A stretch of DNA of 24,000 bases from Marine Group I thaumarchaeote (GTDB lineage Archaea > Thermoproteota > Nitrososphaeria > Nitrososphaerales > Nitrosopumilaceae). A program made the translations under genes and the position numbers. Position 1 is the stretch's first letter, and every line of letters begins with the position of its first letter. The notes under the pieces were generated by a model, which was not told the DNA's origin, ran no database searches, and saw nothing but the letters and a program-made list of their open reading frames with translations. Shown piece after piece: positions 2,842 through 16,829 of the stretch. Location: assembly GCA_013390375.1 (NCBI GenBank), contig JACATA010000001.1, positions 50,211-74,210 of the forward strand, written 5' to 3'.

Positions 2842-4074
2842 ATGAAATTTAAGAACTCGCCAAAAGAATCAGACGAATTAATCTATGAAGCAGTTTCATT
2901 ATTCAAGAAAAATAAATTCAAAATGGCACTATCAATTTTTGACAAACTTTTAAAAATTAATCCAAAAAGCTTGATTGCATTATCGCATAAGGCTGCTACT
3001 CTTTATGAGTTATCAAGATTTGATGAGGCGATGAAATACTGTGATCAAGTTCTGGAAGAAGATCCGCTATATCTTCACGCATTGTTTTACAAGGGTTTAG
3101 TACTTGGAAAAATGGGTGAACATCAGAAGGCAATCAGCTTCTTTGATAAAGTTTTACAAACAGATCGTAAACATGTGTTGGCATTATACAATGAGGGTGT
3201 ACAGTTTGGCAAGATTGGCAAATATGAAGATGCAGTAAAATTTTTTGAAAAAACATTAGAGGCTGAGCCAGAAAATTCAAGTGCAATGTATGAAACAGGT
3301 CGAGCCCTAGCAAAATTGGGTAAAACCAAGGAGAGTTTGTTGTGGTTTGACCGGGCAATTAAAGTCGATGCAAAAGAATCAATGTCATATTATAACGAGG
3401 GGGTAGATCTTACAAAAGCAAACAATCACCAAGAAGCTATTGTGTATTACGATAAAGCATTAGATCTTGATAAAAACAATGTAAAAGCACTGGTAGCAAA
3501 AGGCTATACTCTTGATGTAGCCGGTTTTTCTTACAAGCAAGTTGTATCATTGTATGACAGAGCACTAAAAATTGACCCAAAATGTACTGAGGCAATACTG
3601 AAGAAGGGAGTTGTGTTTGAGCGAGTTGGTTTATACCATAGGGCAGTTTCATCGTATGAGAATCTGTTAAAAATTGAACCAGAAAACGTTGAGGCGTTAT
3701 ACGGCAAAGCTGTTTCATTAAACTCGCAAAAAAAATACCAGGAGGCGGAATTTTTTTGTAAACGTGCGATAGCTATAGAACCAAAAAATTTGAGGGCTCT
3801 TGGCAGTATGGTTTGGATCCTTGAACATCAGAAAAGATACGAAGAAGCCATGACTTATTGCGACAAGGCAATTGAGATTAATCCTAATTTCTTCTACACT
3901 TTGAGTTACAAAGGAAAGCTGCTTTACGATTTGGGGAGATTTTCTGAGGCTTTAGTTTACTATGACAAAGCTCTAAAGCTGAGTCCAGACGATAGAAGAG
4001 CTCTTCACTACAGAAATAAGATTACAAATAAATTTGGAAAATTAAAGAAAAAACCCTTTCCTATTAAATTTTGA
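2842..4074 (+). CDS. Tetratricopeptide-repeat (TPR) protein, about 11 tandem repeats
   Basis: The whole 410-aa protein is a run of 34-aa units with the TPR pattern (..A...Y.KAL...P....AL..KG..), for example EAMKYCDQVLEEDPLYLHALFYKGLVLGKMGEHQKAISFFDKVLQTD. ATG start. Its stop codon is 1 nt from the stop of the convergent symporter gene. Confidence 0.9.
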   Translation: MKFKNSPKESDELIYEAVSLFKKNKFKMALSIFDKLLKINPKSLIALSHKAATLYELSRFDEAMKYCDQVLEEDPLYLHALFYKGLVLGKMGEHQKAISFFDKVLQTDRKHVLALYNEGVQFGKIGKYEDAVKFFEKTLEAEPENSSAMYETGRALAKLGKTKESLLWFDRAIKVDAKESMSYYNEGVDLTKANNHQEAIVYYDKALDLDKNNVKALVAKGYTLDVAGFSYKQVVSLYDRALKIDPKCTEAILKKGVVFERVGLYHRAVSSYENLLKIEPENVEALYGKAVSLNSQKKYQEAEFFCKRAIAIEPKNLRALGSMVWILEHQKRYEEAMTYCDKAIEINPNFFYTLSYKGKLLYDLGRFSEALVYYDKALKLSPDDRRALHYRNKITNKFGKLKKKPFPIKF

Positions 4075-4075
4075 C

Positions 4076-5629
4076 TTAAGCAGGTGTACTAGTTTGAGGA
4101 CCTGGCTTGAAACCCCTTAAGTCCTCACCTGCAATAACGTCTTCCACAGGTGGTGCATAATCTCTGACATCGTGTCGTTCCTTGCCAGGATAATTCTTTT
4201 GTGTAGCTAGTGCAACTGCAATGAATAAGAAGAATGCAATGATAGGTGGAATCATACTATCCAAGCCCGCATATTCTACAGCAAGATAGCCCGTTGTCTC
4301 CATATCAATCCAGAAGATTAGTCTTATTCCAGAGCCTACAAGTAGTGCAACAACTGCAGCTGGCATGTTAGATTTCTTCCAAAACAATCCAAGTGTTAAC
4401 GGAGCCCATGCTCCTGCAAACACAACATCAAAAGCTAGAATCAAGTAAAATCCAGGGTTTGGAGCTACCCAAGCAAGAAGTACACCAACTCCAAACATTG
4501 GTATAACACAAATTCGTGTTATCCACAATAATTTGTTGTCACTCCATGCATCCCTCTTGAGCCACCGTCGCCGGATTATACGTTGTATAAGATTACGCGA
4601 AATTACAGCCGAAATTCCAAGCAGACCTCCGTTTGCAGTAGACATTCCCGCTCCAAGAACTCCAATCAGCATTGCCGCCCCAATTGCAAATGGCATGTGT
4701 TCCATTGCAAGCAAAGGCATAGCCATTCCTGGATCTTCAAGCGAAGGCAGATAGAACATCGCAATCATTCCCAACATGCTTGTGGGAATTACTGTGAACA
4801 ATGTCAAGCCGCCTCCCCAAAGTGCACCACGCCGAGCTACCTTCGGGTTTTTAGCAGCAAACACCCTTTCCATAAAGTCTAGAGCTATTACATCACCAAG
4901 TCCCAAGGCAAATAATGCTGCCCAATTAAGCAACGCACCATTTTCTATAACATACAGAGCCGTCAAGTCCATAGTGCCATCTGGGAACGAATCTGAAATT
5001 TCTGCCCACGGTGTATCGGCATATCCCCCTGCAAAGAAGATGAAAGCAGCCCAAAATGCCACAATAGCAATATGAACTTGGAAAAGATCCGTAGCCGCAC
5101 AGGAAAACAAGCCTCCACAGAATGTGTATATCAAGACAACTGTTGCGACGATAAGCAATCCCCAAATGTAACTTACGCCAAATACCAATTCACAAATCAA
5201 GCCAGCCGCTGCCAAGTTTCCAGCAACTAAAATAACAAAACTGATAATCATTAATACTGATGAGATGCCTTCTGCTCCATTTCCAAATCGTCTAAAGTAG
5301 AAATCAGGCAAAGTAAACATTTGCATAAAGTTAAGACGCTTAGCATAGAAGATACCAACTAGCAGCAGACATACACCAAGTCCAATCGGCAATACTGCTC
5401 CAGCATAAAATCCAAATTCCCAGACAAGCGCCATATTACCTAATGATGAGTTTCCATCAATTGATTGGGCTGCCAACATTGTTCCCACCAAAAACAGGGG
5501 AAGGCTTCTGCCTGCTACAATTAATCTTCGGCCACTTTTCTGTACAAGTTTCCACATGAGGGAGCCTGCAATTACTGACCCTGCCAAAAATATAGCTACG
5601 ACAATGCCAAAATCTGTAAATTCTGCCAA
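4076..5629 (-). CDS. Sodium:solute symporter (SSS) family transporter, likely DUR3-like urea transporter
   Basis: A 517-aa polytopic membrane protein with Gly/Ala/Leu-rich helices throughout and SSS-like N-terminal topology. The urea specificity is inferred from its position beside the ure genes and from the known association of SSS/DUR3-type transporters with thaumarchaeal urease loci. The start is TTG at 5629, and the next in-frame Met would delete TM1. Confidence 0.8.
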   Translation of the reverse strand: MAEFTDFGIVVAIFLAGSVIAGSLMWKLVQKSGRRLIVAGRSLPLFLVGTMLAAQSIDGNSSLGNMALVWEFGFYAGAVLPIGLGVCLLLVGIFYAKRLNFMQMFTLPDFYFRRFGNGAEGISSVLMIISFVILVAGNLAAAGLICELVFGVSYIWGLLIVATVVLIYTFCGGLFSCAATDLFQVHIAIVAFWAAFIFFAGGYADTPWAEISDSFPDGTMDLTALYVIENGALLNWAALFALGLGDVIALDFMERVFAAKNPKVARRGALWGGGLTLFTVIPTSMLGMIAMFYLPSLEDPGMAMPLLAMEHMPFAIGAAMLIGVLGAGMSTANGGLLGISAVISRNLIQRIIRRRWLKRDAWSDNKLLWITRICVIPMFGVGVLLAWVAPNPGFYLILAFDVVFAGAWAPLTLGLFWKKSNMPAAVVALLVGSGIRLIFWIDMETTGYLAVEYAGLDSMIPPIIAFFLFIAVALATQKNYPGKERHDVRDYAPPVEDVIAGEDLRGFKPGPQTSTPA

Positions 5630-5757: not shown

Positions 5758-6144
5758 CTATTTTAGGATGTTGTATTTAGTAGCAAAATTCTTAATTTCA
5801 GAAAATTCCATTTCCTTTAAAATGAATTTGGTATAATCATCCCTGTTTATGTGATGCTCGTACTCAACGTTAATGACTTTATCATAAACACGTGGAGGAC
5901 TGGGTATTCTTCCACAAACTTCCTTACAAATTTGCTCTAGTTGGAGAAATTGAAACTTATCCAGCATTTCTAGCGTTAAAATGACCTGCTGCTCCTGTTT
6001 TTCCATTTTTTCATAATCCTTTGGTGATGTATTCTTTTCCTGCTCATCCGCCACAAAATCCGCTAAAAACTCCTTGATATCCATGCTAGTTTTCACAAAA
6101 TCAACAATATAACAGATCACATTAAATGGGATCCATTGTGTCAA
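5758..6144 (-). CDS. Hypothetical protein (track ORF 128 aa; likely real start is the ATG at 6087, giving 109 aa MDIKEFLADF...)
   Basis: I recognised no family. The longer ORF would overlap the upstream gene by 23 nt. The ATG at 6087 sits inside the inverted-repeat arm and has a TATA-like TTATATTG about 25 nt upstream, in the 34-nt gap after the upstream stop. Confidence 0.5.
   Translation of the reverse strand: MTQWIPFNVICYIVDFVKTSMDIKEFLADFVADEQEKNTSPKDYEKMEKQEQQVILTLEMLDKFQFLQLEQICKEVCGRIPSPPRVYDKVINVEYEHHINRDDYTKFILKEMEFSEIKNFATKYNILK
6074..6103 (-). repeat. Right arm of the 30-bp inverted repeat (partner of 5697..5726)
   Basis: See the left arm. This arm contains the probable start codon and 18 nt of upstream sequence of the hypothetical gene. 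Confidence 0.9.
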
Positions 6145-6418
6145 TTAGCCTTGCATTTGTTACATTACCGCTTTTTTCTTGAATTTCTAAATCGACGGTG
6201 TTTTTTTTGCCTTCAAGACTGAAGGTAACTTGAACATCCCAAGCTACACGTGGGCCAAATTCCGGAAGTGCAAAAACCTCACGAATTTTAAAATTACTTA
6301 TACTATTACCGTATAAAGCCTCAATTGTCCTCTTTGATTCTTTTTCTATTTCTTGAGGCGTAGTTACTTGAACCATTAACTTTGCATGAACTTCTCTATA
6401 AAAAAAGTTTTGTGGCAA
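6122..6418 (-). CDS. Hypothetical small protein (98 aa from TTG, or 84 aa from the ATG at 6376)
   Basis: An open frame on the same strand as, and directly upstream of, the 5758..6144 gene. The composition is that of a soluble alpha/beta protein. I recognised no motif. Confidence 0.5.
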   Translation of the reverse strand: MPQNFFYREVHAKLMVQVTTPQEIEKESKRTIEALYGNSISNFKIREVFALPEFGPRVAWDVQVTFSLEGKKNTVDLEIQEKSGNVTNARLIDTMDPI

Positions 6419-6469
6419 TAGGCAAATTTAATTATATTCTAACACACTAAATTTTGAAACAAATTGGGA

Positions 6470-7585
6470 ATGGAAGCTTATGGTGATGATTACAAGGGCG
6501 CACCAGAACCAATTTTTTGTGGAATACCAACATTTTTGAAATTACCGCTTTTAAAAAATCAGCAAGAATTACAGAAATCAAAGCCGGACATTGCAATAAT
6601 TGGTGAACCGTTTGATTTTGGAACTACAATTAGACCCGGTGCACGTTATGGTCCTAGAGCAATTAGGGCAGCATCAACAGTCCCATCACCTCCGTACGAA
6701 CATTTCAACATAGAAACGGGTGTTGATCCATTTGGAGTATTCAAAGTTGCAGACTATGGAGATGTCAATGTATCACCTGGAGATGTGATTGAATCGTTAA
6801 GAAGAATGACGGACAAGGTGAAATCTGTACTTGATATTGATGCTATGCCAATAATGCTTGGAGGGGATCACTCTATTACATTTGCAAATGTACGGGCTTT
6901 TGCCAAAAAACACAAAAACATTGGCATGATACATATCGATACACATGCAGATTGTGCACCGCAAGGACTAACTGGTTTCAAATACGATCACGGTGCACAC
7001 ATTCGCCGAATAATGGAATTAGGTTGCCTTAAAGGGAAAAATTATACCTTGATAGGACCTCGCGGATATTGGCCAGGACCTGATCTTTACAAATGGATGG
7101 CAGACCAAGACTTTCAATGGTTTACCATGTTAGATGTTGAAGAGCTTGGTATAGATCAAATAGCAAAAGAGGCAGCTGACAGAGCAAATGATAACGTTGA
7201 CGGTGTTTTCATAAGCTGGGACATAGACACCTTTGATCCTGCATATGCACCTGGAACAGGAGAGCCGGAACCAAACGGTTTGACTTCTCGTGAAGGAATG
7301 AGATTGATGAGATTGTTATCTACATCATTTGATCCAGATACGTTTGGATTTGATCTAGTTGAAGTTTCTCCAGCATATGACGTGAGTGATGTAAACTCAT
7401 ACAATGGAGGCATCACTTCAGGGTTAGCTAATAGATTAATTGTAGAATTGATGGCGGGGTTATCTTTGACAAAAAAAGGAGAGCGTGAGGGTAATCCTGT
7501 TAGGCCAAAGTCATACAGAGGAACTGGAAACACATATAGCTTTGGCGGACCAAAAGCAGAACCACCTTCTCCTAGAAAAAATTGA
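6470..7585 (+). CDS. Arginase/agmatinase-family ureohydrolase (agmatinase-, guanidino-acid- or guanidine-hydrolase-like)
   Basis: All family metal-site motifs are present: LGGDHSITF, IHIDTHADC, SWDIDTFDPAYAPGTGEPEPNGLT and DLVEVSPAYD. The track ORF starts at TTG 6464, and the first ATG is 6470 (MEAYGDDY..). A ~40-aa Pro/Gly/Lys-rich C-terminal extension (..TKKGEREGNPVRPKSYRGTGNTYSFGGPKAEPPSPRKN) follows the fold. Confidence 0.9.
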   Translation: MEAYGDDYKGAPEPIFCGIPTFLKLPLLKNQQELQKSKPDIAIIGEPFDFGTTIRPGARYGPRAIRAASTVPSPPYEHFNIETGVDPFGVFKVADYGDVNVSPGDVIESLRRMTDKVKSVLDIDAMPIMLGGDHSITFANVRAFAKKHKNIGMIHIDTHADCAPQGLTGFKYDHGAHIRRIMELGCLKGKNYTLIGPRGYWPGPDLYKWMADQDFQWFTMLDVEELGIDQIAKEAADRANDNVDGVFISWDIDTFDPAYAPGTGEPEPNGLTSREGMRLMRLLSTSFDPDTFGFDLVEVSPAYDVSDVNSYNGGITSGLANRLIVELMAGLSLTKKGEREGNPVRPKSYRGTGNTYSFGGPKAEPPSPRKN

Positions 7586-7968
7586 TAGATATTCAAATTA
7601 TCATTAAAGGAGAAAAGGCACAAAATTCATTTTCTCAAAAATATTATTATCCTCATGAATCAGACGAGGAAATTTTTTTCAATTCAGTACAATTAGTAAT
7701 AGCTAGGATTGAAAAGAAATTAAAGATCAACCTTAATGAGGTACTTACAATTTTTCTAGATTTTTTAGTACGAGAGCATAGAAAAAAAAGAGACATAGAT
7801 GAGATAAAAGAAAACCTTTCAAAACTTCTTACACATGATCAAGTATTGATTGGAGTTCCAGAGTTGGTTAAAAAGATAGAATTTTCTGGAAGGATTGACT
7901 TAAACCCAAAATTTACAATTGTTCTAAATGAACCCATTCTGATTCCAGAATATATTATAAAGGCGTAA
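7582..7968 (+). CDS. Divergent urease gamma-subunit (UreA)-like protein
   Basis: It aligns ungapped to the local UreA over ~95 residues. The matching blocks are [44 protein letters not shown] and [19 protein letters not shown]. The ORF has no Met codon. The TTG start at 7582 overlaps the TGA (7583..7585) of the ureohydrolase gene. Confidence 0.6.
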   Translation: MIDIQIIIKGEKAQNSFSQKYYYPHESDEEIFFNSVQLVIARIEKKLKINLNEVLTIFLDFLVREHRKKRDIDEIKENLSKLLTHDQVLIGVPELVKKIEFSGRIDLNPKFTIVLNEPILIPEYIIKA

Positions 7969-7990: not shown

Positions 7991-8437
7991 TTAATCCTTA
8001 TACCACCTTGTAATTTTTACAAGAAAATTGATAACAACCAAGTAAATAGCGACAGCGATAATCTGCCCTGTTATTGATGCTAAGTATGGCTCATAATCAA
8101 CCGTTAGAAAGTAAAATTGAAATCCCCACCTAACTATTGTGTAAATGATTTCTGCGATACCTAGTGAGGCAATAATTTTTACTAAATCTGTCTTAAGTAG
8201 TGGCCAATTTGTTTTTCCTGAATTTAGTCTGTATTTGTTTCGATTATCTAGATATAGCAAAAAACCAAGTATTGACAAAAATGTTCCATGATCAGCTAAA
8301 AGAGTAACAGTTGCATTGATGTAATGTTCCTGTTCTATAAGCATCTGGGCTACTATAGCTGAAACTATAAAATCTACTGCAAATGCTATGAAAATATTCC
8401 TGTTTAGTTTTAGATATTGTTTGTATATGTCTTTCAT
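7991..8437 (-). CDS. Uncharacterised 4-TM membrane protein directly downstream of ureD
   Basis: 148 aa with four hydrophobic segments: IFIAFAVDFIVSAIVAQMLI, GTFLSILGFLLYL, IIASLGIAEIIYTIVRWGFQFYFL and ITGQIIAVAIYLVVINFLV. It starts 32 nt after the ureD stop on the same strand. I recognised no family signature. Confidence 0.6.
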   Translation of the reverse strand: MKDIYKQYLKLNRNIFIAFAVDFIVSAIVAQMLIEQEHYINATVTLLADHGTFLSILGFLLYLDNRNKYRLNSGKTNWPLLKTDLVKIIASLGIAEIIYTIVRWGFQFYFLTVDYEPYLASITGQIIAVAIYLVVINFLVKITRWYKD

Positions 8438-8469
8438 ACCTAAACAGAAATTTATTATGTATTAGTATT

Positions 8470-9399
8470 CTAAGTTTTTCTTACACCATTAAATGAAGTG
8501 CCAAGAATTTCCTTTCTTACTATTCTAATAATACCATAAATTGTGGTTTTAATTTCCTCGGATGAATTTCCTAACAATCTAACAACTAAACCACAGTCAT
8601 GTGGCAGCACGGTACAACCACCATTCACTTCAGCATTATCTTGTAGTGCCAGATTAATTTTCTCTTTAATTTGTAAAACAGAATTATTTTTTGAAATTAT
8701 GTAAATAGTTGCTAAGACTGTATAGTTTCCAAAGATGCCAAGTGTTGTCATTTTTTGTTTTTTTGGTTCTAAAAGAAAATTATCTAAAAATTTAGTTTTT
8801 TTATCATTATTACGACAAATCGTTTTTAGATAACAAATATCGTATGAAAAAAATTCCCCCATGGCAACTCTGCCGGGAGTCAGTATTTCGGAATATACGA
8901 GGGTTGCGGAATCTTCAATGTTTAATTCGACTTTTTGATAATATCGTGAATTTTGATATGGAATTAATTGATCTGGTATGAATTCCAAATAGCAGTCTTT
9001 GTTTACAGTAATATTGAACAATTGTGTAGCATAGTTTGAATTCATTTTGTAGATTCGTGTGGCGCCCTGCGTTGTTATATGACATACAGCTTGATTTGTT
9101 AGCGTAATATCTATTCTACACCGATCTCCTTGTATGATTCCACCTGATGGCGACATGATAAACAAATTGGCCATGCTAGGAAGAAATTCATCATAATAAA
9201 GTGCCTTTTGGATGTAAAGTGGAAATTGAGAATATTGATCAGTAACGACAGTTTTATTTTTTTTAGAATCCTTTTCTAGTTTTATTCTTATGAATCCAAC
9301 TTTTCCTGTTTTGCCAACATCCAGCTGAGCTACTTTATGGTCATATGCTGAGAATTCTGAAGGAATGTCATCTGGTTCAACAAATTTTAGATCAGTCAT
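8470..9399 (-). CDS. ureD: Urease accessory protein UreD/UreH
   Basis: The size (309 aa), the position after ureG with a 4-nt overlap, and UreD-like strings (SPSGGIIQGDRCRIDI, ITTQGATRIYK) support the call. Confidence 0.85.
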   Translation of the reverse strand: MTDLKFVEPDDIPSEFSAYDHKVAQLDVGKTGKVGFIRIKLEKDSKKNKTVVTDQYSQFPLYIQKALYYDEFLPSMANLFIMSPSGGIIQGDRCRIDITLTNQAVCHITTQGATRIYKMNSNYATQLFNITVNKDCYLEFIPDQLIPYQNSRYYQKVELNIEDSATLVYSEILTPGRVAMGEFFSYDICYLKTICRNNDKKTKFLDNFLLEPKKQKMTTLGIFGNYTVLATIYIISKNNSVLQIKEKINLALQDNAEVNGGCTVLPHDCGLVVRLLGNSSEEIKTTIYGIIRIVRKEILGTSFNGVRKT

Positions 9400-10055
9400 T
9401 TTGCATTAGTGATTATTTTTTTTGGAGGTTGTTCAAACAATACATCTTCTATTATGTGACGGGCTACAATGTCAACACCTTCATCAGTTTTGCAGTTAAC
9501 AAGTACGTACGGTTTATTTTTTCTAACAGTTTTTGCATCACGTTCCATTATATCCAAATTAGCATCTACTAGTGGTGCAAGATCAATTTTGTTTATTACC
9601 AATAGATCACACGTCTCAATACCCAATCCCCTTTTTCGTGGATATTTATCACCACCTGAAACATCGATAATATAAATAAAATAATCAGCCAAGGCAGGAC
9701 TAAACGTAGTTGTAATATTATCACCGCCGCTTTCAATTATAATTAAATCCAAATCACTGTGTTCGTTTTCTATCTCTTCAATTACAGACAGATTAATTGA
9801 CGGATCTTCGCGAATTGCCGTATGTGGACATCCACCAGTAGCAACACCAATCACTAAATTTTCAGGTAGTAAGCCCTGATTAGTAGCAAGATTTTGCCTC
9901 ATTCTATCGGCATCTTCCTTAGAAATAACATCATTTGAAATAATACTAATTCGATAACCATTCTTTGCTAAAATTGGTACGACTCTTTCAATCAACATGC
10001 TTTTTCCACATCCTACAGGTCCACCGATGCCAATGCGTGGAATTCTTTTTTTCAT
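9396..10055 (-). CDS. ureG: Urease accessory GTPase UreG
   Basis: P-loop GIGGPVGCGKS, the metal-binding GGCPHTAIRED motif, ESGGDN, and NKIDLAP for GTP specificity. Confidence 0.95.
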   Translation of the reverse strand: MKKRIPRIGIGGPVGCGKSMLIERVVPILAKNGYRISIISNDVISKEDADRMRQNLATNQGLLPENLVIGVATGGCPHTAIREDPSINLSVIEEIENEHSDLDLIIIESGGDNITTTFSPALADYFIYIIDVSGGDKYPRKRGLGIETCDLLVINKIDLAPLVDANLDIMERDAKTVRKNKPYVLVNCKTDEGVDIVARHIIEDVLFEQPPKKIITNAK

Positions 10056-10072
10056 ATCAGCAAAGACTAGTT

Positions 10073-10783
10073 TTATGTAATAAACATTTTAGAAAATGTC
10101 TGCTCATGAGCTATTTGTATAACATCATATTCAGGTGCAAATTGCCACATCTCACTTAATGATTTTGAAATGTATTTGTTACAAGTTTCTGCAATAACAG
10201 GTTTTAATTGATGCAGTATTTTTTGACTTTGAATGTGTTCGATCATCCCTAATCTTAGTGCTGCACCAACCATGCTTACGGAAAATCCATAAAGAAAATG
10301 TAACGCTGCCTTTTGTTTTTCAATCCCTAACGAATTAGATACAACACCTATAACTACAGCATGTGTTCCGGGTGTTTTGGAGTTTTTTACCGCCTCATAA
10401 TACTCACTTAAGACGTCATTGTTAACAAAAGAACTAACACATTTTATCATCTGTGTTCCAGATCTACATGTTGCTTCGCGTAATTCCTTAACAAGTTTCA
10501 TTGAAAATAACAATTTATCACATTCAATTATCCTTTCAACATCTTTTGATCCAGTAAAATTGTAAGCATTAGCAAGTGCTACACAGTCAGCAGGTCCAAT
10601 TTGTTGTACAATATTAGTCTGTATTAATTCATAAAGTTCGTCAATTGATGCTATTCGTTTTTCAGAAAATAATGTTTCTAAACCGTTAGACATTGTGTAA
10701 AGTCCGGTAGGAAAAAATGAATCGGAGATCTGCATCAAGCTCAAGTCGCTAAAATCAGTGTTCATGTACATCCATACTAACAT
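10073..10783 (-). CDS. ureF: Urease accessory protein UreF
   Basis: The N-terminal LMQISDSFFPTGLYTMSNGLE matches the UreF signature (L.Q..DS.FP.G....S.GLE). The gene lies between ureE and ureG. The likely true start is an internal ATG (about 10765-10771), which shortens the overlap with ureE. Confidence 0.85.
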   Translation of the reverse strand: MLVWMYMNTDFSDLSLMQISDSFFPTGLYTMSNGLETLFSEKRIASIDELYELIQTNIVQQIGPADCVALANAYNFTGSKDVERIIECDKLLFSMKLVKELREATCRSGTQMIKCVSSFVNNDVLSEYYEAVKNSKTPGTHAVVIGVVSNSLGIEKQKAALHFLYGFSVSMVGAALRLGMIEHIQSQKILHQLKPVIAETCNKYISKSLSEMWQFAPEYDVIQIAHEQTFSKMFIT

Positions 10784-11252
10784 GTGGAATAAAGCGTTGT
10801 TCGTCTACTGTGAGGTCAATTTTATCAATTACTTCATGAAACAGTCTTTGAAACAATTCCATTTCAGAATCATCAAGAATAGGAAAGGAAATTGTTTCAT
10901 TATTGATTGAAATTGGACGATGCCTATTTCCAATAATGTGACCCACAAGAAGAAATAACTCTGGATCGCTGTCCTTGAATTTAACAGTGAGTGTCTTTTC
11001 CGGTAATTGTTCAATTAGAATAGTTTCTGAGGATTCTAAAATTATATCGCCATGTTGTAGTCTTTTTCCAGGTTCAAGCGCTAGACCAATATCAAATCCA
11101 TCTTCAGTTTTTTTTCTTAAACGTGATTTTTCCATCTCAATTCTAGACAATAATAGGCGCCTAAACGTTCCATGTTGTTTTACTTCTTGAAATTTTTTCG
11201 CTAGCTCGGCGTTTTCGTATATATTTCCCGAAACAGCATTAACAATTAACAT
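10755..11252 (-). CDS. ureE: Urease metallochaperone UreE
   Basis: The conserved Ni-binding segment is present (LVGHIIGNRHRPISI; UreE GNRH motif), and the protein has a short His-containing end (HVSMDVHEH). It is the first gene of the ureEFGD operon. Confidence 0.8.
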   Translation of the reverse strand: MLIVNAVSGNIYENAELAKKFQEVKQHGTFRRLLLSRIEMEKSRLRKKTEDGFDIGLALEPGKRLQHGDIILESSETILIEQLPEKTLTVKFKDSDPELFLLVGHIIGNRHRPISINNETISFPILDDSEMELFQRLFHEVIDKIDLTVDEQRFIPHVSMDVHEH

Positions 11253-11329
11253 AAAAATTAGTGGTATTACGGAATTATATTTTTTTATTTATAATTTAAG
11301 GATAAATACCACATAACAGAAATTTACTC
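11253..11329. promoter_or_regulatory. Divergent ureE / ureA promoter region with back-to-back TATA boxes
   Basis: On the plus strand, ATAAATAC (11302..11309) lies 28 nt before the ureA ATG. On the minus strand, AAATATAA (11275..11282) occupies -30 to -23 before the ureE ATG. An 8-bp inverted pair, GTGGTATT (11261..11268) and AATACCAC (11305..11312), flanks the centre. Confidence 0.5.
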
Positions 11330-11632
11330 ATGTATCTTACTCCAAGGGAAATGGACAAATTACATGTCTTTATGACAGCTGAACTTGCTAGAAAACGAAA
11401 AGCAAGGGGTTTAAAATTAAACCATCCGGAATCTGTTGCACTTATTGCTGATCATATTTTAGAAGGTGCTCGTGATGGAAAATCAGTCGCTGATCTAATG
11501 AATTCTGGAAAAACAGTCTTAACAAAGGACGATGTTCTGCCTGGTGTGACAGATATTATTCATACAGTTCAAGTTGAAGCAACATTTGAGGATGGTACAA
11601 AATTAGTCACAGTTCATGACCCAATTGTGTGA
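11330..11632 (+). CDS. ureA: Urease gamma subunit
   Basis: [57 protein letters not shown]...[21 protein letters not shown] is the canonical 100-aa UreA. Confidence 0.95.
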
Positions 11633-11636
11633 TAAT

Positions 11637-12017
11637 ATGATACCAGGAGAATATTTTCACGCAGATAAATCCATACTGGCAAATGAGGGGCAAAAAACTG
11701 TTCAAGTTAATGTTGCAAGCACTGGCGATAGACCTATACAAGTTGGATCCCACACTCATTTTTTTGAAGTAAATAAGGCGCTTGAGTTTGAAAGGGAAAA
11801 AGCATATGGTTTTCATCTGAACATACCTGCTGGTACATCCGTCAGATTCGAACCTGGGGAATCAAAAAATGTTGAACTAACTGAATACACTGGAAAAAGA
11901 ATTGTTTATGGATTTAATGGTCTCGTAAGTGGTTCACTGGAAAAAAATAAAGAAGATGCATTGAAAAAGGCGGCAGAACAGGGTTTCAAGAATATTGTAA
12001 TAAAACGTGATGGGTAA
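11637..12017 (+). CDS. ureB: Urease beta subunit
   Basis: It opens with the canonical MIPGEY and contains [17 protein letters not shown]. The track ORF begins earlier (11616), but the ATG at 11637 gives the conserved N-terminus, 4 nt after the ureA stop. Confidence 0.95.
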
Positions 12018-13731
12018 AATGGTTCTTGAAATTGCAAGAAAACGATACGTTGAACTGTTTGGTCCGACAGTTGGTGACAAAGTACGCCTTGCTGACACTG
12101 ATTTGATCATTGAAGTTGAAAAGGATCTTCTCAAATATGGAGATGAGCTTGTATTTGGTGGCGGGAAAAGTGTACGTGATGGGCTTGGTCAAGCAGCCGG
12201 TGTCATGCGTGACGAATCTGCCGATTTAGTAATCACAAATGCAATAGTCTTAGATCCTGTCTTGGGTATCATCAAAGCAGATATTGGAATAAAGGACGGA
12301 AAGATTCTAAGAGTTGGAAACGCAGGAAATCCAAATGTGATGGATGATGTTGACATTATTGTTTCTTCAAATACTGAAATAATTTCCGGTGAGCATACAA
12401 TTTGTACGCCTGGTACGATTGACAGCCATATTCATTTTATCTCTCCGCAGCAGGCGATTTATGCCATTTGTAGTGGGACTACTACCATGATTGGTGGCGG
12501 TACTGGTCCCGCTGATGGTACAAATGCCACAACTTGTACGCCTGGAGAGTGGAATATACACAAAATGATTGAGGCTGTAGAAGAATACCCACTAAACTTT
12601 GGATTCTTAGGCAAGGGCAATGACTCACGCGAGGAAGCTTTACTGGAACAAATTAAAGCTGGAGCATGTGGCTTGAAACTTCATGAGGATTGGGGAACAA
12701 CTCCGGCTACAATAAACTCGGCGCTAAATGTTGCGGACAAAACTGATACGCAGGTTGCAATTCATACGGATACGCTAAACGAGTGTGGCTATGTTGATGA
12801 TACCATCAACGCAATTGCGGGAAGAGCTATCCACACCTACCATACAGAAGGTGCTGGTGGCGGACATGCGCCGGACATTATGAAGATAGCGGGAGAAGCA
12901 AACATCTTACCGTCTTCAACAAACCCCACTAGACCATTTACGGTAAACACACTTCAGGAACATCTTGACATGATGATGGTTTGCCATCACCTTAATCCTT
13001 CAGTTCCAGAGGATGTCTCTTTTGCTGAATCAAGAATACGGGCTGAAACAATTGCTGCTGAAGACGTCTTGCATGACATAGGTGCCATTAGCATGATGTC
13101 ATCAGATAGCCAAGCAATGGGTAGAGTAGGAGAAGTTACTACCAGAAACTGGCAGACAGCAGACAAAATGAAGAAAATGAAAGGAAGGCTGTCTCAAGAA
13201 AATGGAGATAATGATAATTTTAGGGTAAAAAGATATCTTGCAAAAATTACTATAAACCCAGCAATAACTCATGGAATTTCTGACTATGTTGGCTCACTTG
13301 AGCCAGGTAAAATTGCTGATATAGTTATTTGGACGTCACAGTTTTTTGGAATTAAACCCAAGTTGATAATCAAGGGAGGATTCATAGCATATGCTTTGAT
13401 GGGAGATCCAAATGCGTCAATTCCAACAACAGAACCGGTTTATTATCGCCCAATGTTTGGTGCGCTTGGAAAAGCAAAGCAATCTACGTCGGTTACTTTT
13501 ACCTCACAACTTGCATTAGATAATAAATTAGAGGAAAAGCTAAAAATTCAGAAAAAACTTGTTCCTGTAAAAAACTGCCGCAACATTGGAAAAAAGGATA
13601 TGCTGTATAATGATCAAACGCCTAAGATAGAAGTTGATCCAGAAACATATGAAGTGAAAGTTGACGGTAAAATTGCAACGGTTGATCCTGCCGAGAAGCT
13701 ATCTCTTGCGAGACTTTACAGCTTGTACTAA
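12007..13731 (+). CDS. ureC: Urease alpha (catalytic) subunit
   Basis: [16 protein letters not shown] is present, together with the Ni ligands and active-site strings [20 protein letters not shown] (carbamylated Lys), [29 protein letters not shown] and SSDSQAMGR. In-frame start candidates are GTG 12007, ATG 12010 and ATG 12019. All of them overlap or abut the ureB stop at 12015..12017. Confidence 0.97.
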
Positions 13732-13759
13732 TTACTGACCTGCAATATAGGGAAAAATG

Positions 13760-15343: not shown

Positions 15344-16708
15344 TCAGAACTTGCTTGGTAACAGTTCCGCAAGTTTTAGCGCCTTTCCCGTCTTTTTAGC
15401 CTCGGACATCTTTTTGAACATCTCGCGCTTTTCCTCCTCGGAATATTTTTTTTCGATTACCAAATGTACCAGCGGTCTTAGAATTTTTTCCACGGCGGAC
15501 ATGTCAGGATTATCAATTCCTTTGAGAAAAACCAAATTTCTTTTTTCCGGACCATACTCTAGCTCTTCGATTCTTTTTCTCAAGTCATCAATCTCGTGGT
15601 TTTTTGTCTCTAGCTGGTTGATCTCCTCTTGTTTTTGCTGATTCTCTAGACGCAACAGTTCTTCATTGGAAATGGTAAGGAACGGAATTGCCTTTTGATA
15701 TTCAGGAAACCTCTCAAAGTCTTCCTCCTGGTATCTTTCATAGTGTCTTTCCAAGCCAACCTTGTGACCCATCATGTCTTCCTTGTCGAGAAAGTTAACC
15801 TTGGCTCGTCTCATCATTGTGTTAAAGTATTTTCGAAAGCCGTGATCCAGTTGCACCTCATGTCTATTTTTTCCAGGCGGCAAGGGAGGTCTCAGTCCTA
15901 TCTCTGTCACTATCTTTTCAACTCTTTTCCTAACTCCCTTTGAGTTTAGTCTGTGAATCACGGGATACTTTACCGCCCTTATCAGCGGGTCGTCAGGCTT
16001 TGGGTATGCGCCAATGTCAGCCTTCCACTTTTCACGGTAGAGTTCCAGGGTACTAGATGCCTCTGGCGTGACAAACGTCCAGTAGCTTTCAGGATCTCCA
16101 CGGTACACAAGCAAGGAGCCTCCCCTGTAAGATCCGTCCTTGTTCTTGAATGGAATATAGTCCTTCCATGTAAAATAATTCCAGGAATCCAGCCTGAATC
16201 CTCCAGACGAAAATAGCTGTATGATCAGTTTGTCTGTAATGTCTGGTGCAACCTGCATCATTTTCTGAAGTTCCGTCTTTGTGTATGCCCTGTCGTTGGA
16301 CGAGGTTTCGCGTCTGGGTAGAAGCTTGTTTAACGATTTCCAGTGAACCGGTATGCGGTTGGCATCAAGCAAAACCTTGATTGGCTTGATGTGGTTTGGC
16401 AGCGTGTTGGCGCTGAGCTTTCCGGCATCCACCACCTTTTTCTCATTTTTTATAAACGTGGCAATCACGTTTGCCGCCAGTTCTGGATCCTTTTTGGATA
16501 ACTTGACAAAGATGTTGGCAAGGGTGGAAGGTTCCTTGTTCCTTGGAGCCTTTCCCAGATGATCCTTGTAGAGTTTTACCGGAACGATCTTGAGAAAGGA
16601 CTGCAGGTCTTTTTTGTACTTTCGCAGCGTCTCCTCACTCTTGATTGAATCCAGGAACAGCTGGTATGGGACGCTGCGTTCGTTTATCTGGTCAATTGTG
16701 ATTTTCAA
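15344..16708 (-). CDS. Tyrosine recombinase / phage-type integrase with a long C-terminal coiled-coil extension
   Basis: The catalytic pattern is recognisable: SSGGFRLDS (Arg), LDHGFRKYF (H-x-x-R), MMGHKVG (His) and ERHYERY (Tyr, around residue 323-326). The start is TTG at 16708. An in-frame TAA lies 30 nt upstream with no ATG between. A TATA-like TAAAATAG lies about 30 nt upstream. Confidence 0.85.
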   Translation of the reverse strand: MKITIDQINERSVPYQLFLDSIKSEETLRKYKKDLQSFLKIVPVKLYKDHLGKAPRNKEPSTLANIFVKLSKKDPELAANVIATFIKNEKKVVDAGKLSANTLPNHIKPIKVLLDANRIPVHWKSLNKLLPRRETSSNDRAYTKTELQKMMQVAPDITDKLIIQLFSSGGFRLDSWNYFTWKDYIPFKNKDGSYRGGSLLVYRGDPESYWTFVTPEASSTLELYREKWKADIGAYPKPDDPLIRAVKYPVIHRLNSKGVRKRVEKIVTEIGLRPPLPPGKNRHEVQLDHGFRKYFNTMMRRAKVNFLDKEDMMGHKVGLERHYERYQEEDFERFPEYQKAIPFLTISNEELLRLENQQKQEEINQLETKNHEIDDLRKRIEELEYGPEKRNLVFLKGIDNPDMSAVEKILRPLVHLVIEKKYSEEEKREMFKKMSEAKKTGKALKLAELLPSKF

Positions 16709-16750: not shown

Positions 16751-16768
16751 GGGATGGGTCCACAGGGA
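16751..16768. repeat. Proximal att direct repeat overlapping the tRNA-Val 3' end
   Basis: It covers the 3' half of the T-arm and the 3' acceptor strand of the tRNA, and pairs with 15219..15236. Confidence 0.85.
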
Positions 16769-16829
16769 TTTGAACCCTGGATTTTCGCCGTGTAAGGGCG
16801 ACGTCATAACCGACCTGGACCATGGACCC
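16755..16829 (-). tRNA. tRNA-Val (anticodon TAC)
   Basis: Hand-folded, 75 nt. The acceptor stem GGGTCCA/TGGACCC is perfect, the anticodon stem is TCGCC/GGCGA with loop CTTACAC, and the T-arm is CAGGG-TTCAAAT-CCCTG. The discriminator is A and CCA is not encoded. A TATA box, TTTAAATG (16852..16859), starts at -30. Confidence 0.9.

Follow-up and report, generated by a model that had tools for sequence, protein, structure and literature searches.

A urease gamma-like protein family encoded immediately downstream of an arginase-family ureohydrolase in ammonia-oxidizing archaea

UreA, the gamma subunit of urease (PF00547; PDB 1a5k and 2kau, chain A; Sporosarcina pasteurii 5a6t, chain A), is a small, non-catalytic alpha/beta protein. 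Second PF00547 genes occur in some genomes, as with Brucella 'urease subunit gamma 2' (PDB 4fur) and N. viennensis ureA2B2C2, where they are of canonical length and lie in complete second ureABC sets. Among ureohydrolases, the bacterial metformin hydrolase MefH/DmgH (PDB 8snf, 8ryi) is a heteromeric, Ni-dependent alpha2beta4 enzyme whose arginase-family subunit requires a non-catalytic subunit from the adjacent gene; no other heteromeric ureohydrolase is known, and this one was presented as without precedent (PMC11399263). An arginase-family gene of ammonia-oxidizing archaea (AOA) has been called 'agmatinase (SpeB)' (PMC11131427; PMC10753782), and in metagenome-assembled genomes (MAGs) of soil AOA it clusters with an SSS urea transporter and is conserved and expressed (PMC11131427). 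Here we analyse a 24,000-nucleotide stretch of a Marine Group I thaumarchaeote assembly (GCA_013390375.1, contig JACATA010000001.1, positions 50,211 to 74,210; hereafter the window), in which an open reading frame (ORF) with distant similarity to UreA, the gamma-like gene, has a start codon that overlaps the stop codon of an arginase-family ureohydrolase gene. All coordinates below are window positions unless a contig is named, and features are collected in Table 1.

The gamma-like ORF opens with a TTG that shares bases with the TGA of the 373-residue arginase-family ORF at 6464..7585 (junction sequence AAAAATTGATAG). An earlier note, made from the letters of this stretch alone, had proposed a divergent UreA-like gene here with TTG 7582 as its sole start candidate. 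The frame at 7582..7968 indeed contains no ATG, but codons 89 and 95 are TTG too, and the TTG at codon 1 is the only start that yields the conserved protein. In a BLASTP comparison with the canonical UreA of the window (11330..11632), 23/100 positions are identical and one gap is needed (E=2e-10), in line with the ~22 identities in ~97 columns counted by hand in the note. At 128 residues against 100, and ~22% identity, the gamma-like protein differs from UreA by an extra N-terminal hairpin and a 12-residue C-terminal tail; both extensions had been noticed before, but they measure 23 and ~12 residues rather than ~20 and ~9. The probability that 128 codons stay open by chance at the ORF's own base composition is ~5e-6, and AT-rich DNA is rich in stop codons, so that chance ORFs become less likely in it, not more. 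The G+C content of the ORF is 27.9%, compared with 40.9% for the ureohydrolase gene and 36.6% for the whole window; a recount of positions 7681..7740 gave 16 G+C instead of the 17 given earlier.

Profile and structure comparisons confirmed that the gamma-like ORF encodes a true, very divergent homolog of urease gamma. Residues 23–106 match profile positions 4–87 of 99 in Pfam PF00547 (Urease_gamma) with 31.1 bits, above the gathering cut-off of 23.9, and a profile of the gamma-like family matches Klebsiella aerogenes UreA (PDB 1a5k_A) over UreA residues 7–99 with E=1.1e-15. The profile alignment to UreA begins at about residue 26 of the gamma-like protein, and the motifs LK(I/L)NxxE, QV(M/L)xGVPE and PI are common to both families. 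The ORF nonetheless fails the NCBIfam equivalog cut-offs for UreA (NF009712, 38.7 vs 123 bits; TIGR00193, 31.9 vs 82.3 bits), whereas the window's canonical UreA reaches 160 and 150 bits on the same models. An AlphaFold2 model built from a 91-sequence family alignment has a predicted local distance difference test score (pLDDT) of 93.6 and a predicted template modelling (TM) score of 0.86; this alignment was required, a run with 16 marine sequences alone having given a pLDDT of 49 and been discarded. When the model was compared with the PDB using Foldseek, the top 18 matches were all urease gamma chains or domains, with TM scores of 0.77–0.82 normalised to stand-alone gamma chains. Brucella gamma 2 (4fur) was the best structural match, and non-gamma folds first appeared at E>0.1.

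The model consists of a two-stranded N-terminal hairpin (residues 2–8 and 17–23), the helices and beta-hairpin of the gamma fold, and a less confident C-terminal tail. The hairpin of the wider family carries a GEPD motif that is lost in the marine clade, and P118, I119 and Y124 of the tail are conserved family-wide. No His is conserved in the family, and its one Cys, present at 55% frequency, is missing from the marine clade. A metal-binding role was considered and judged unlikely because neither His nor Cys is conserved; the sequences point to a protein that is probably non-catalytic.

The earlier note had also likened the GVPE string of the gamma-like protein to that of bacterial UreA. The string is indeed absent from the local UreA at 11330..11632, which carries GVTDI, but it is no sign of a bacterial-type origin. 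We rejected such an origin because most AOA UreAs keep GVPE (as GVPEL or GVPEM) and because AOA and bacterial UreAs reach the same 47–60 bits against the family profile. The window's canonical UreA scores low against this profile, at 47.7 bits (24 distinct AOA UreAs, range 47–60).

The gene belongs to a widespread family. A word-indexed search returned 75 clusters at 73–99% identity, nearly all exactly 128 aa long and all from marine metagenomes. With the marine alignment as query, an exhaustive HMMER search through 1.84 billion cluster representatives found 96 clusters at 50% identity, 51 of them at E<=1e-10; most matches are 120–140 aa long and aligned from profile position 1, with canonical UreAs appearing only near E ~1e-4. 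Because the matches start at profile position 1, the N-terminal extension belongs to the family. A further search with a 47-sequence family alignment gave 735 clusters at 90% identity, and the named members among them (Nitrososphaera sp., Nitrosopumilaceae and Ca. Nitrosotenuis cloacae) are all labelled 'urease subunit gamma'. In the cultured carrier Ca. Nitrosotenuis cloacae the gene is found around 277161..277550 of CP011097.2. Scanning one genome per GTDB species uncovered relatives in 141 species, all of them Nitrososphaeria and all AOA; marine-clade peptides alone had found no relative in the species genomes, and it was a family alignment that recovered the 141. The exact protein of the window is held at NCBI as NMJ67379.1 and NWJ21028.1 ('Marine Group I thaumarchaeote'), is found on 611 contigs, and also occurs on a Station ALOHA fosmid from 4000 m under the label 'hypothetical protein'.

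As the note had maintained, the gene is no recent local duplicate; it is a divergent paralogue kept across 141 GTDB species. Three of the checks that the note had proposed gave positive results: the profile search against the urease gamma family is significant, the predicted structure matches urease gamma chains at TM ~0.8, and the frame is intact in marine clusters and GTDB loci. Our literature search found no paper on a UreA-like partner of an arginase-family enzyme or on this gene pair, in agreement with the note's statement that no such arrangement had been described, yet the protein is already deposited as 'urease subunit gamma'. The domain family is thus known and the protein public under a misleading name; what appears to be new is a distinct, ureohydrolase-coupled family.

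In contrast to ureA, the gamma-like gene is never found beside ureB or ureC, always follows an arginase-family gene, and persists without the urease (ure) cluster. In 65/65 GTDB species loci, counting only those with enough upstream sequence, the gene immediately before it, on the same strand, encodes the arginase-family enzyme. In none of the fetched loci is the gamma-like gene adjacent to ureB, and it is not part of the urease structural operon. An identical 4-nt NTGA overlap (ATGA or TTGA) joins the two genes in 76 loci from two archaeal orders, a 0-nt gap separates them in 8 more, and ATG (54) and TTG (51) alternate as start codons at the identical junction position. The pairing holds even though the rates of divergence are far apart: across orders, identity to the window is 77–89% for the enzyme but 32–45% for the gamma-like protein. 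This conserved overlap fits translational coupling, which the note had already suggested from the single junction. Ribosomes ending the ureohydrolase at the TGA would restart on the overlapping TTG or ATG, and both proteins would be co-produced.

Four Nitrososphaeraceae loci show a different junction (L070 at 4189, L074 at 2074, L080 at 2763 and L098 at 10001). There the conserved gamma-like N-terminus opens with CTG ATA GAC, no ATG, GTG or TTG stands at the conserved position, and a gap of 20–40 nt follows the enzyme stop. These sequences suggest that translation in that lineage begins at CTG or ATA, or that the protein is shorter there.

We propose that the gamma-like protein is a partner of the ureohydrolase and independent of urease, a reading to which we give a probability of roughly 0.55. 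It builds on the homology and fold of the protein, the conservation of its family, the adjacency and overlap of the two genes, and the persistence of the pair under purifying selection without the ure cluster at this site. Translational coupling, a physical association with the ureohydrolase and the geometry of such a complex would be its further, conjectural parts. The protein could instead be an alternative or regulatory urease gamma, that is, a decoy or second UreA isoform entering (UreABC)3. Its PF00547 membership and its public name would agree with this, and Brucella gamma 2 and N. viennensis ureA2 are likewise second PF00547 genes in their genomes. Those copies, however, sit inside complete ureABC sets, whereas this gene stands alone with the ureohydrolase in every one of the 65 loci, falls short of both UreA equivalog cut-offs, and is kept at sites lacking the ure cluster; we consider a role as an alternative gamma very improbable.

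The enzyme upstream is extremely conserved and does not fit its usual name. All six binuclear-metal ligands (H, D, H, D, D, D) are present in the window protein, and among orthologs the motifs GGDHS, H[IFL]DTHAD (DxHxD) and SWDID (DxD) are found in 82/82, 76/82 and 77/82, respectively, orthologs failing the latter two being counted by pattern only. At odds with the label 'agmatinase (SpeB)', it falls below both agmatinase cut-offs (TIGR01230, 163.6 vs 174.3; NF002564, 204.7 vs 302) and is closer to guanidino-acid and guanidine hydrolases. Its closest solved structures are guanidinobutyrase GbuA (3nio, 2e-52) and GdmH (7esr, 5e-50), followed by proclavaminate amidinohydrolase (PAH), N. inopinata guanidinase (9fek) and guanidinopropionase GpuA, while solved agmatinases match at only E ~1e-34. 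The gene described as 'agmatinase (SpeB)' in PMC11131427 is probably this same gene in the same sodium:solute symporter family (SSF) neighbourhood; the gamma-like gene downstream is not mentioned in that account.

GdmH and the comammox guanidinase (7esr/7oi1, 9fek; PMC11410670) have the six metal ligands in common with the AOA enzyme, as well as the Thr, His and Glu sites singled out in guanidinases, the Thr lying within FDFGTT, and all are urea-releasing enzymes linked to nitrifier nitrogen supply. The AOA enzyme departs from them at the residues that mark guanidine hydrolase specificity (T97/W305 in Synechocystis; T105/W313 in N. inopinata): the Trp is replaced by Glu, within a GTGEPEP motif present in 81/82 orthologs. 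It is further distinguished by a conserved, basic C-terminal tail of ~43 residues (PVRPxxYRGxGxTYxF, net charge ~+7), before which the alignments to solved relatives stop. For GdmH no gamma-like partner or riboswitch is known, and no guanidine or other riboswitch was found near the window's ureohydrolase/gamma-like pair. MefH/DmgH is related to the AOA enzyme (E ~1e-32) and offers the nearest likeness to the pair, an arginase-family enzyme requiring a non-catalytic product of the neighbouring gene. Its partner, however, is a degenerate ureohydrolase paralogue rather than a UreA-fold protein, and its complex has been demonstrated, whereas ours is deduced from the genes; the MefH/DmgH system is also recently evolved and carries the chaperone genes hypA/hypB in its operon (PMC11399263).

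The relation of the pair to urease can be read from natural variation at this locus. The urease cluster lies 0.5 kb from the pair in the window, and is likewise carried by contigs L010, L013–L015 and L024. At least 12 related marine contigs (L001, L003, L005–L008, L016, L017, L019, L020, L022 and L023) have ~16 bp in place of 8453..13747; we call these urease-minus, a term that describes this site, the contigs being silent on the rest of the genome. Every urease-minus haplotype keeps the symporter, the enzyme and the gamma-like ORF (shortened in L023), and all share a common junction despite synonymous divergence (dS) of up to 0.48 between them. No obvious direct repeats were found at the cluster boundaries. 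In contig L022 the left flank has 99.5% identity to the window and the right flank only 90%, a mismatch that suggests recombination. Retention of the pair without the cluster fits the ratios of ~0.7 for ureC:amoA and ~1 for dur3:amoA reported for Nitrosopelagicus populations (PMC12686405).

Selection on the gamma-like ORF is purifying, with a ratio of nonsynonymous to synonymous substitution rates (dN/dS, omega) of ~0.33 and P(neutral) of 1e-5 to 2e-2 per pair. Omega ranges from 0.23 to 0.86 (median ~0.4) in urease-minus haplotypes, compared with 0.33–0.36 in diverged urease-plus pairs. In pooled marine haplotypes, the corresponding ratio for polymorphisms (pN/pS) is 1.23 for residues 1–23, 0.31 for the core and lowest, at 0.19, for the tail (residues 117–128). 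Because the tail combines family-wide conservation with the lowest pN/pS and lower model confidence, it suggests a short docking motif.

Several of these observations, and some others, weigh against a urease-independent partnership. The N-terminal hairpin looks unconstrained in the marine clade, dN/dS of the gamma-like ORF is ~15-fold higher than that of the enzyme (0.33 vs 0.02), and two marine variants are shortened, to 112 aa in L021 and 123 aa in L023. In L021 (291..626) an in-frame 16-aa deletion removes helix 3; a 112-aa homolog on a JGI contig, P0067, may be the same variant, a likeness that rests on length. In L023 (56..1356, LULR01000904.1) the ureohydrolase has two in-frame deletions, and the gamma-like ORF and ORF148 have both lost their 3' ends to a 180-bp deletion, which may reflect joint decay or an assembly artefact. 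These features, together with the relaxed constraint relative to neighbouring genes, the very low G+C content and the non-ATG start, would be expected of a non-functional relic or a chance frame kept open by AT-rich composition or by constraint on a neighbouring gene. Length and motifs, however, are conserved across two archaeal orders at 32–45% identity, the family alignment predicts a confident fold, core and tail are under purifying selection, and the chance of an open frame is of the order already given. A relic or chance frame is thus hardly credible. The note's suggestion of a slow decay is rejected by the occurrence in 141 GTDB species and the low marine pN/pS of core and tail, while its argument that the frame is maintained holds.

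Also counting against the partnership, no natural ureohydrolase–gamma fusion occurs among the 96 representative HMMER matches, all of which are <=215 aa, and charge complementarity between the basic tail of the enzyme and the gamma-like protein is unsupported, the net charge of the family spanning -10 to +13 (median -1). Neither transcripts nor peptides were found that can be tied to the gamma-like gene; in an N. viennensis transcriptome table three arginase-family genes are listed, two of them followed by small unknown genes, none mappable to it. The physical complex itself is something we infer. Finally, ure genes lie within 10 kb in 15/26 well-flanked GTDB loci, and the urease-minus contigs speak for one site.

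This proximity also speaks for a different proposal, made in outline by the earlier note, in which the gamma-like protein is a tether or channelling adaptor that docks the ureohydrolase on UreBC through UreA surfaces, so that urea is passed to urease. The protein keeps the most conserved UreA motifs (LKxNxxE, QVMxGVPE and PI), and DUR3-like and UT transporters occur near the pair, as does the ure cluster in the window. Yet the pair is kept, with constraint no weaker, in diverged haplotypes that lack the cluster at the site; no ureC is nearby in 11/26 GTDB loci with >=8 kb on both flanks; and the added hairpin and tail alter the UreA surfaces. Tethering to (UreABC)3, like the decoy idea, is weakened by this persistence and by an invariable neighbour that is the ureohydrolase, not ureB or ureC, and we regard it as a doubtful minority option.

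A further candidate role is that of a maturation factor, in which the gamma-like protein would act transiently in folding the ureohydrolase or loading it with metal (Ni/Co or Mn), much as Ni-dependent ureohydrolases are served by accessory proteins of their own. Directly after the gamma-like gene, on the same strand, comes a NicO-like (Ni/Co permease) gene in 32/68 loci, among many Nitrosopumilales and some Nitrososphaera (for example, 10401..11159 in L025 and 10409..11161 in L027), including L030, L037 and L065, which have no ureC within 10 kb. The closest solved relatives of the enzyme include GdmH, which depends on Ni, and the N. inopinata guanidinase, whose structure has Ni and Mn in the active site, and these guanidine hydrolases need, or lack, known chaperones (PMC11410670; PMC11399263). 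Against this, the gamma-like family has no conserved His or Cys and no acidic cluster typical of metallochaperones. The NicO-like gene is absent beside the pair in the marine clade, including the window, and in L036 it is truncated while the pair is intact. UreA, moreover, is not known to handle metal. A maturation factor seems unlikely.

For the partnership with the ureohydrolase we envisage the following course. An old duplication of ureA, within or before the AOA, would have given rise to the gamma-like gene, and the duplicated UreA-fold protein would have been recruited to an AOA-specific arginase-family ureohydrolase. It would most likely bind that enzyme as a non-catalytic accessory subunit, with no requirement for urease. 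UreA forms three-fold assemblies within urease. Isolated gamma subunits have been deposited in the PDB with 3 or 6 chains (2fvh, 4fur), and the closest ureohydrolases are hexamers made of trimers. These facts make it geometrically plausible that a gamma-like trimer caps the three-fold face of a trimeric or hexameric enzyme, with the C-terminal tail as docking element. A stricter version, offered tentatively, is that the gamma-fold protein is an obligate structural subunit of this AOA-wide ureohydrolase, with its GTGEPEP Glu and basic C-terminal tail, and that the enzyme is possibly Ni- or Co-dependent.

Table 1. Window positions of the ureohydrolase/gamma-like pair, its subregions and neighbouring features
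Feature	Position	Strand	Remarks
Arginase-family ureohydrolase	6464..7585	+	373 aa; PF00491, 273 bits; invariable upstream partner gene
Gamma-like (UreA-fold) ORF	7582..7968	+	128 aa; TTG start, TAA stop
TTGA start/stop overlap with upstream ureohydrolase gene	7582..7585	+	putative termination-reinitiation coupling site
N-terminal extension, predicted beta-hairpin, absent in canonical UreA	7582..7650	+	residues 1-23; strands 2-8 and 17-23, pLDDT 85-95
Urease-gamma-like core	7651..7929	+	residues 24-116
Conserved C-terminal tail past the UreA end, EPILIPEYIIKA	7930..7965	+	residues 117-128; pLDDT ~70
Canonical UreA, comparison reference	11330..11632	+	100 aa; PF00547, 157.5 bits; NCBIfam equivalog, 160 bits (cut-off 123)
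Urease cluster (ureD, G, F, E on minus; ureA, B, C on plus)	8453..13747		5.3-kb presence/absence block
ORF148, conserved protein	7991..8437	-	no Pfam match; dN/dS 0.11
Sodium:solute symporter (DUR3-like)	4076..5629	-	PF00474; conserved neighbour of pair
TPR-repeat protein	2842..4074	+	410 aa; conserved neighbour; homologs beside SSF gene in many loci

Around the pair, the DUR3-like symporter is present in 53/80 GTDB loci and in urease-minus marine contigs, and it and the tetratricopeptide repeat (TPR) protein stay beside the pair even where the urease cluster is missing from the site. The 'urea transporter' next to the pair may carry something else, such as the substrate or product of the enzyme. 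Homologs of ORF148 at 47–59% identity are found near the pair in Nitrosopumilales. Two small conserved ORFs at 5758..6418 on the minus strand stand between symporter and ureohydrolase; in relatives their called lengths are 100 aa and 84 aa, Pfam gives no significant match to either, and they keep their position in marine contigs and in L027 and L028.

Two further features lie within or beyond the urease cluster. Antisense to the 5' portion of ureC, at 12175..12463 (minus strand), an Rfam '5_ureB_sRNA' match just reaches its threshold (40.8 bits, threshold 40); the conserved urease coding sequence most likely accounts for it, an archaeal sRNA being the less likely source. A phage-integrase-like ORF at 15347..16708 (minus strand; 24.4 bits, below the Pfam cut-off) lies beside a tRNA at 16755..16829 (minus strand). 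Contig L003 aligns to the window until 15152 and picks up again at 16751, which makes the integrase-like gene a second indel and perhaps what is left of an integrated element.

The naming of this protein has practical consequences. NCBI and JGI/IMG pipelines call it 'urease subunit gamma', so that MAGs show two 'ureA' genes and AOA populations without the urease cluster still score positive for 'ureA', and this can skew estimates of marine and soil urea use that are drawn from genes. The pair also marks an extremely conserved, urea-releasing enzyme in the urea-utilisation neighbourhood of AOA that is usually dismissed as an 'agmatinase'. Its strict coupling to a UreA-fold protein is a testable handle that could reveal the substrate of the enzyme and its role in archaeal nitrogen supply.

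In evolutionary terms, a subunit of one metalloenzyme would have undergone duplication and been co-opted by an unrelated enzyme in its pathway. If the gamma-like protein is indeed a UreA-fold subunit, the ureohydrolase would be the first whose partner subunit is not its homolog, a new arrangement. The DUR3-like symporter, the TPR protein, the enzyme, the gamma-like protein and sometimes NicO would then form a dedicated module for a guanidino compound, one that would yield urea, and hence ammonia, for highly abundant nitrifiers, even in lineages without urease.

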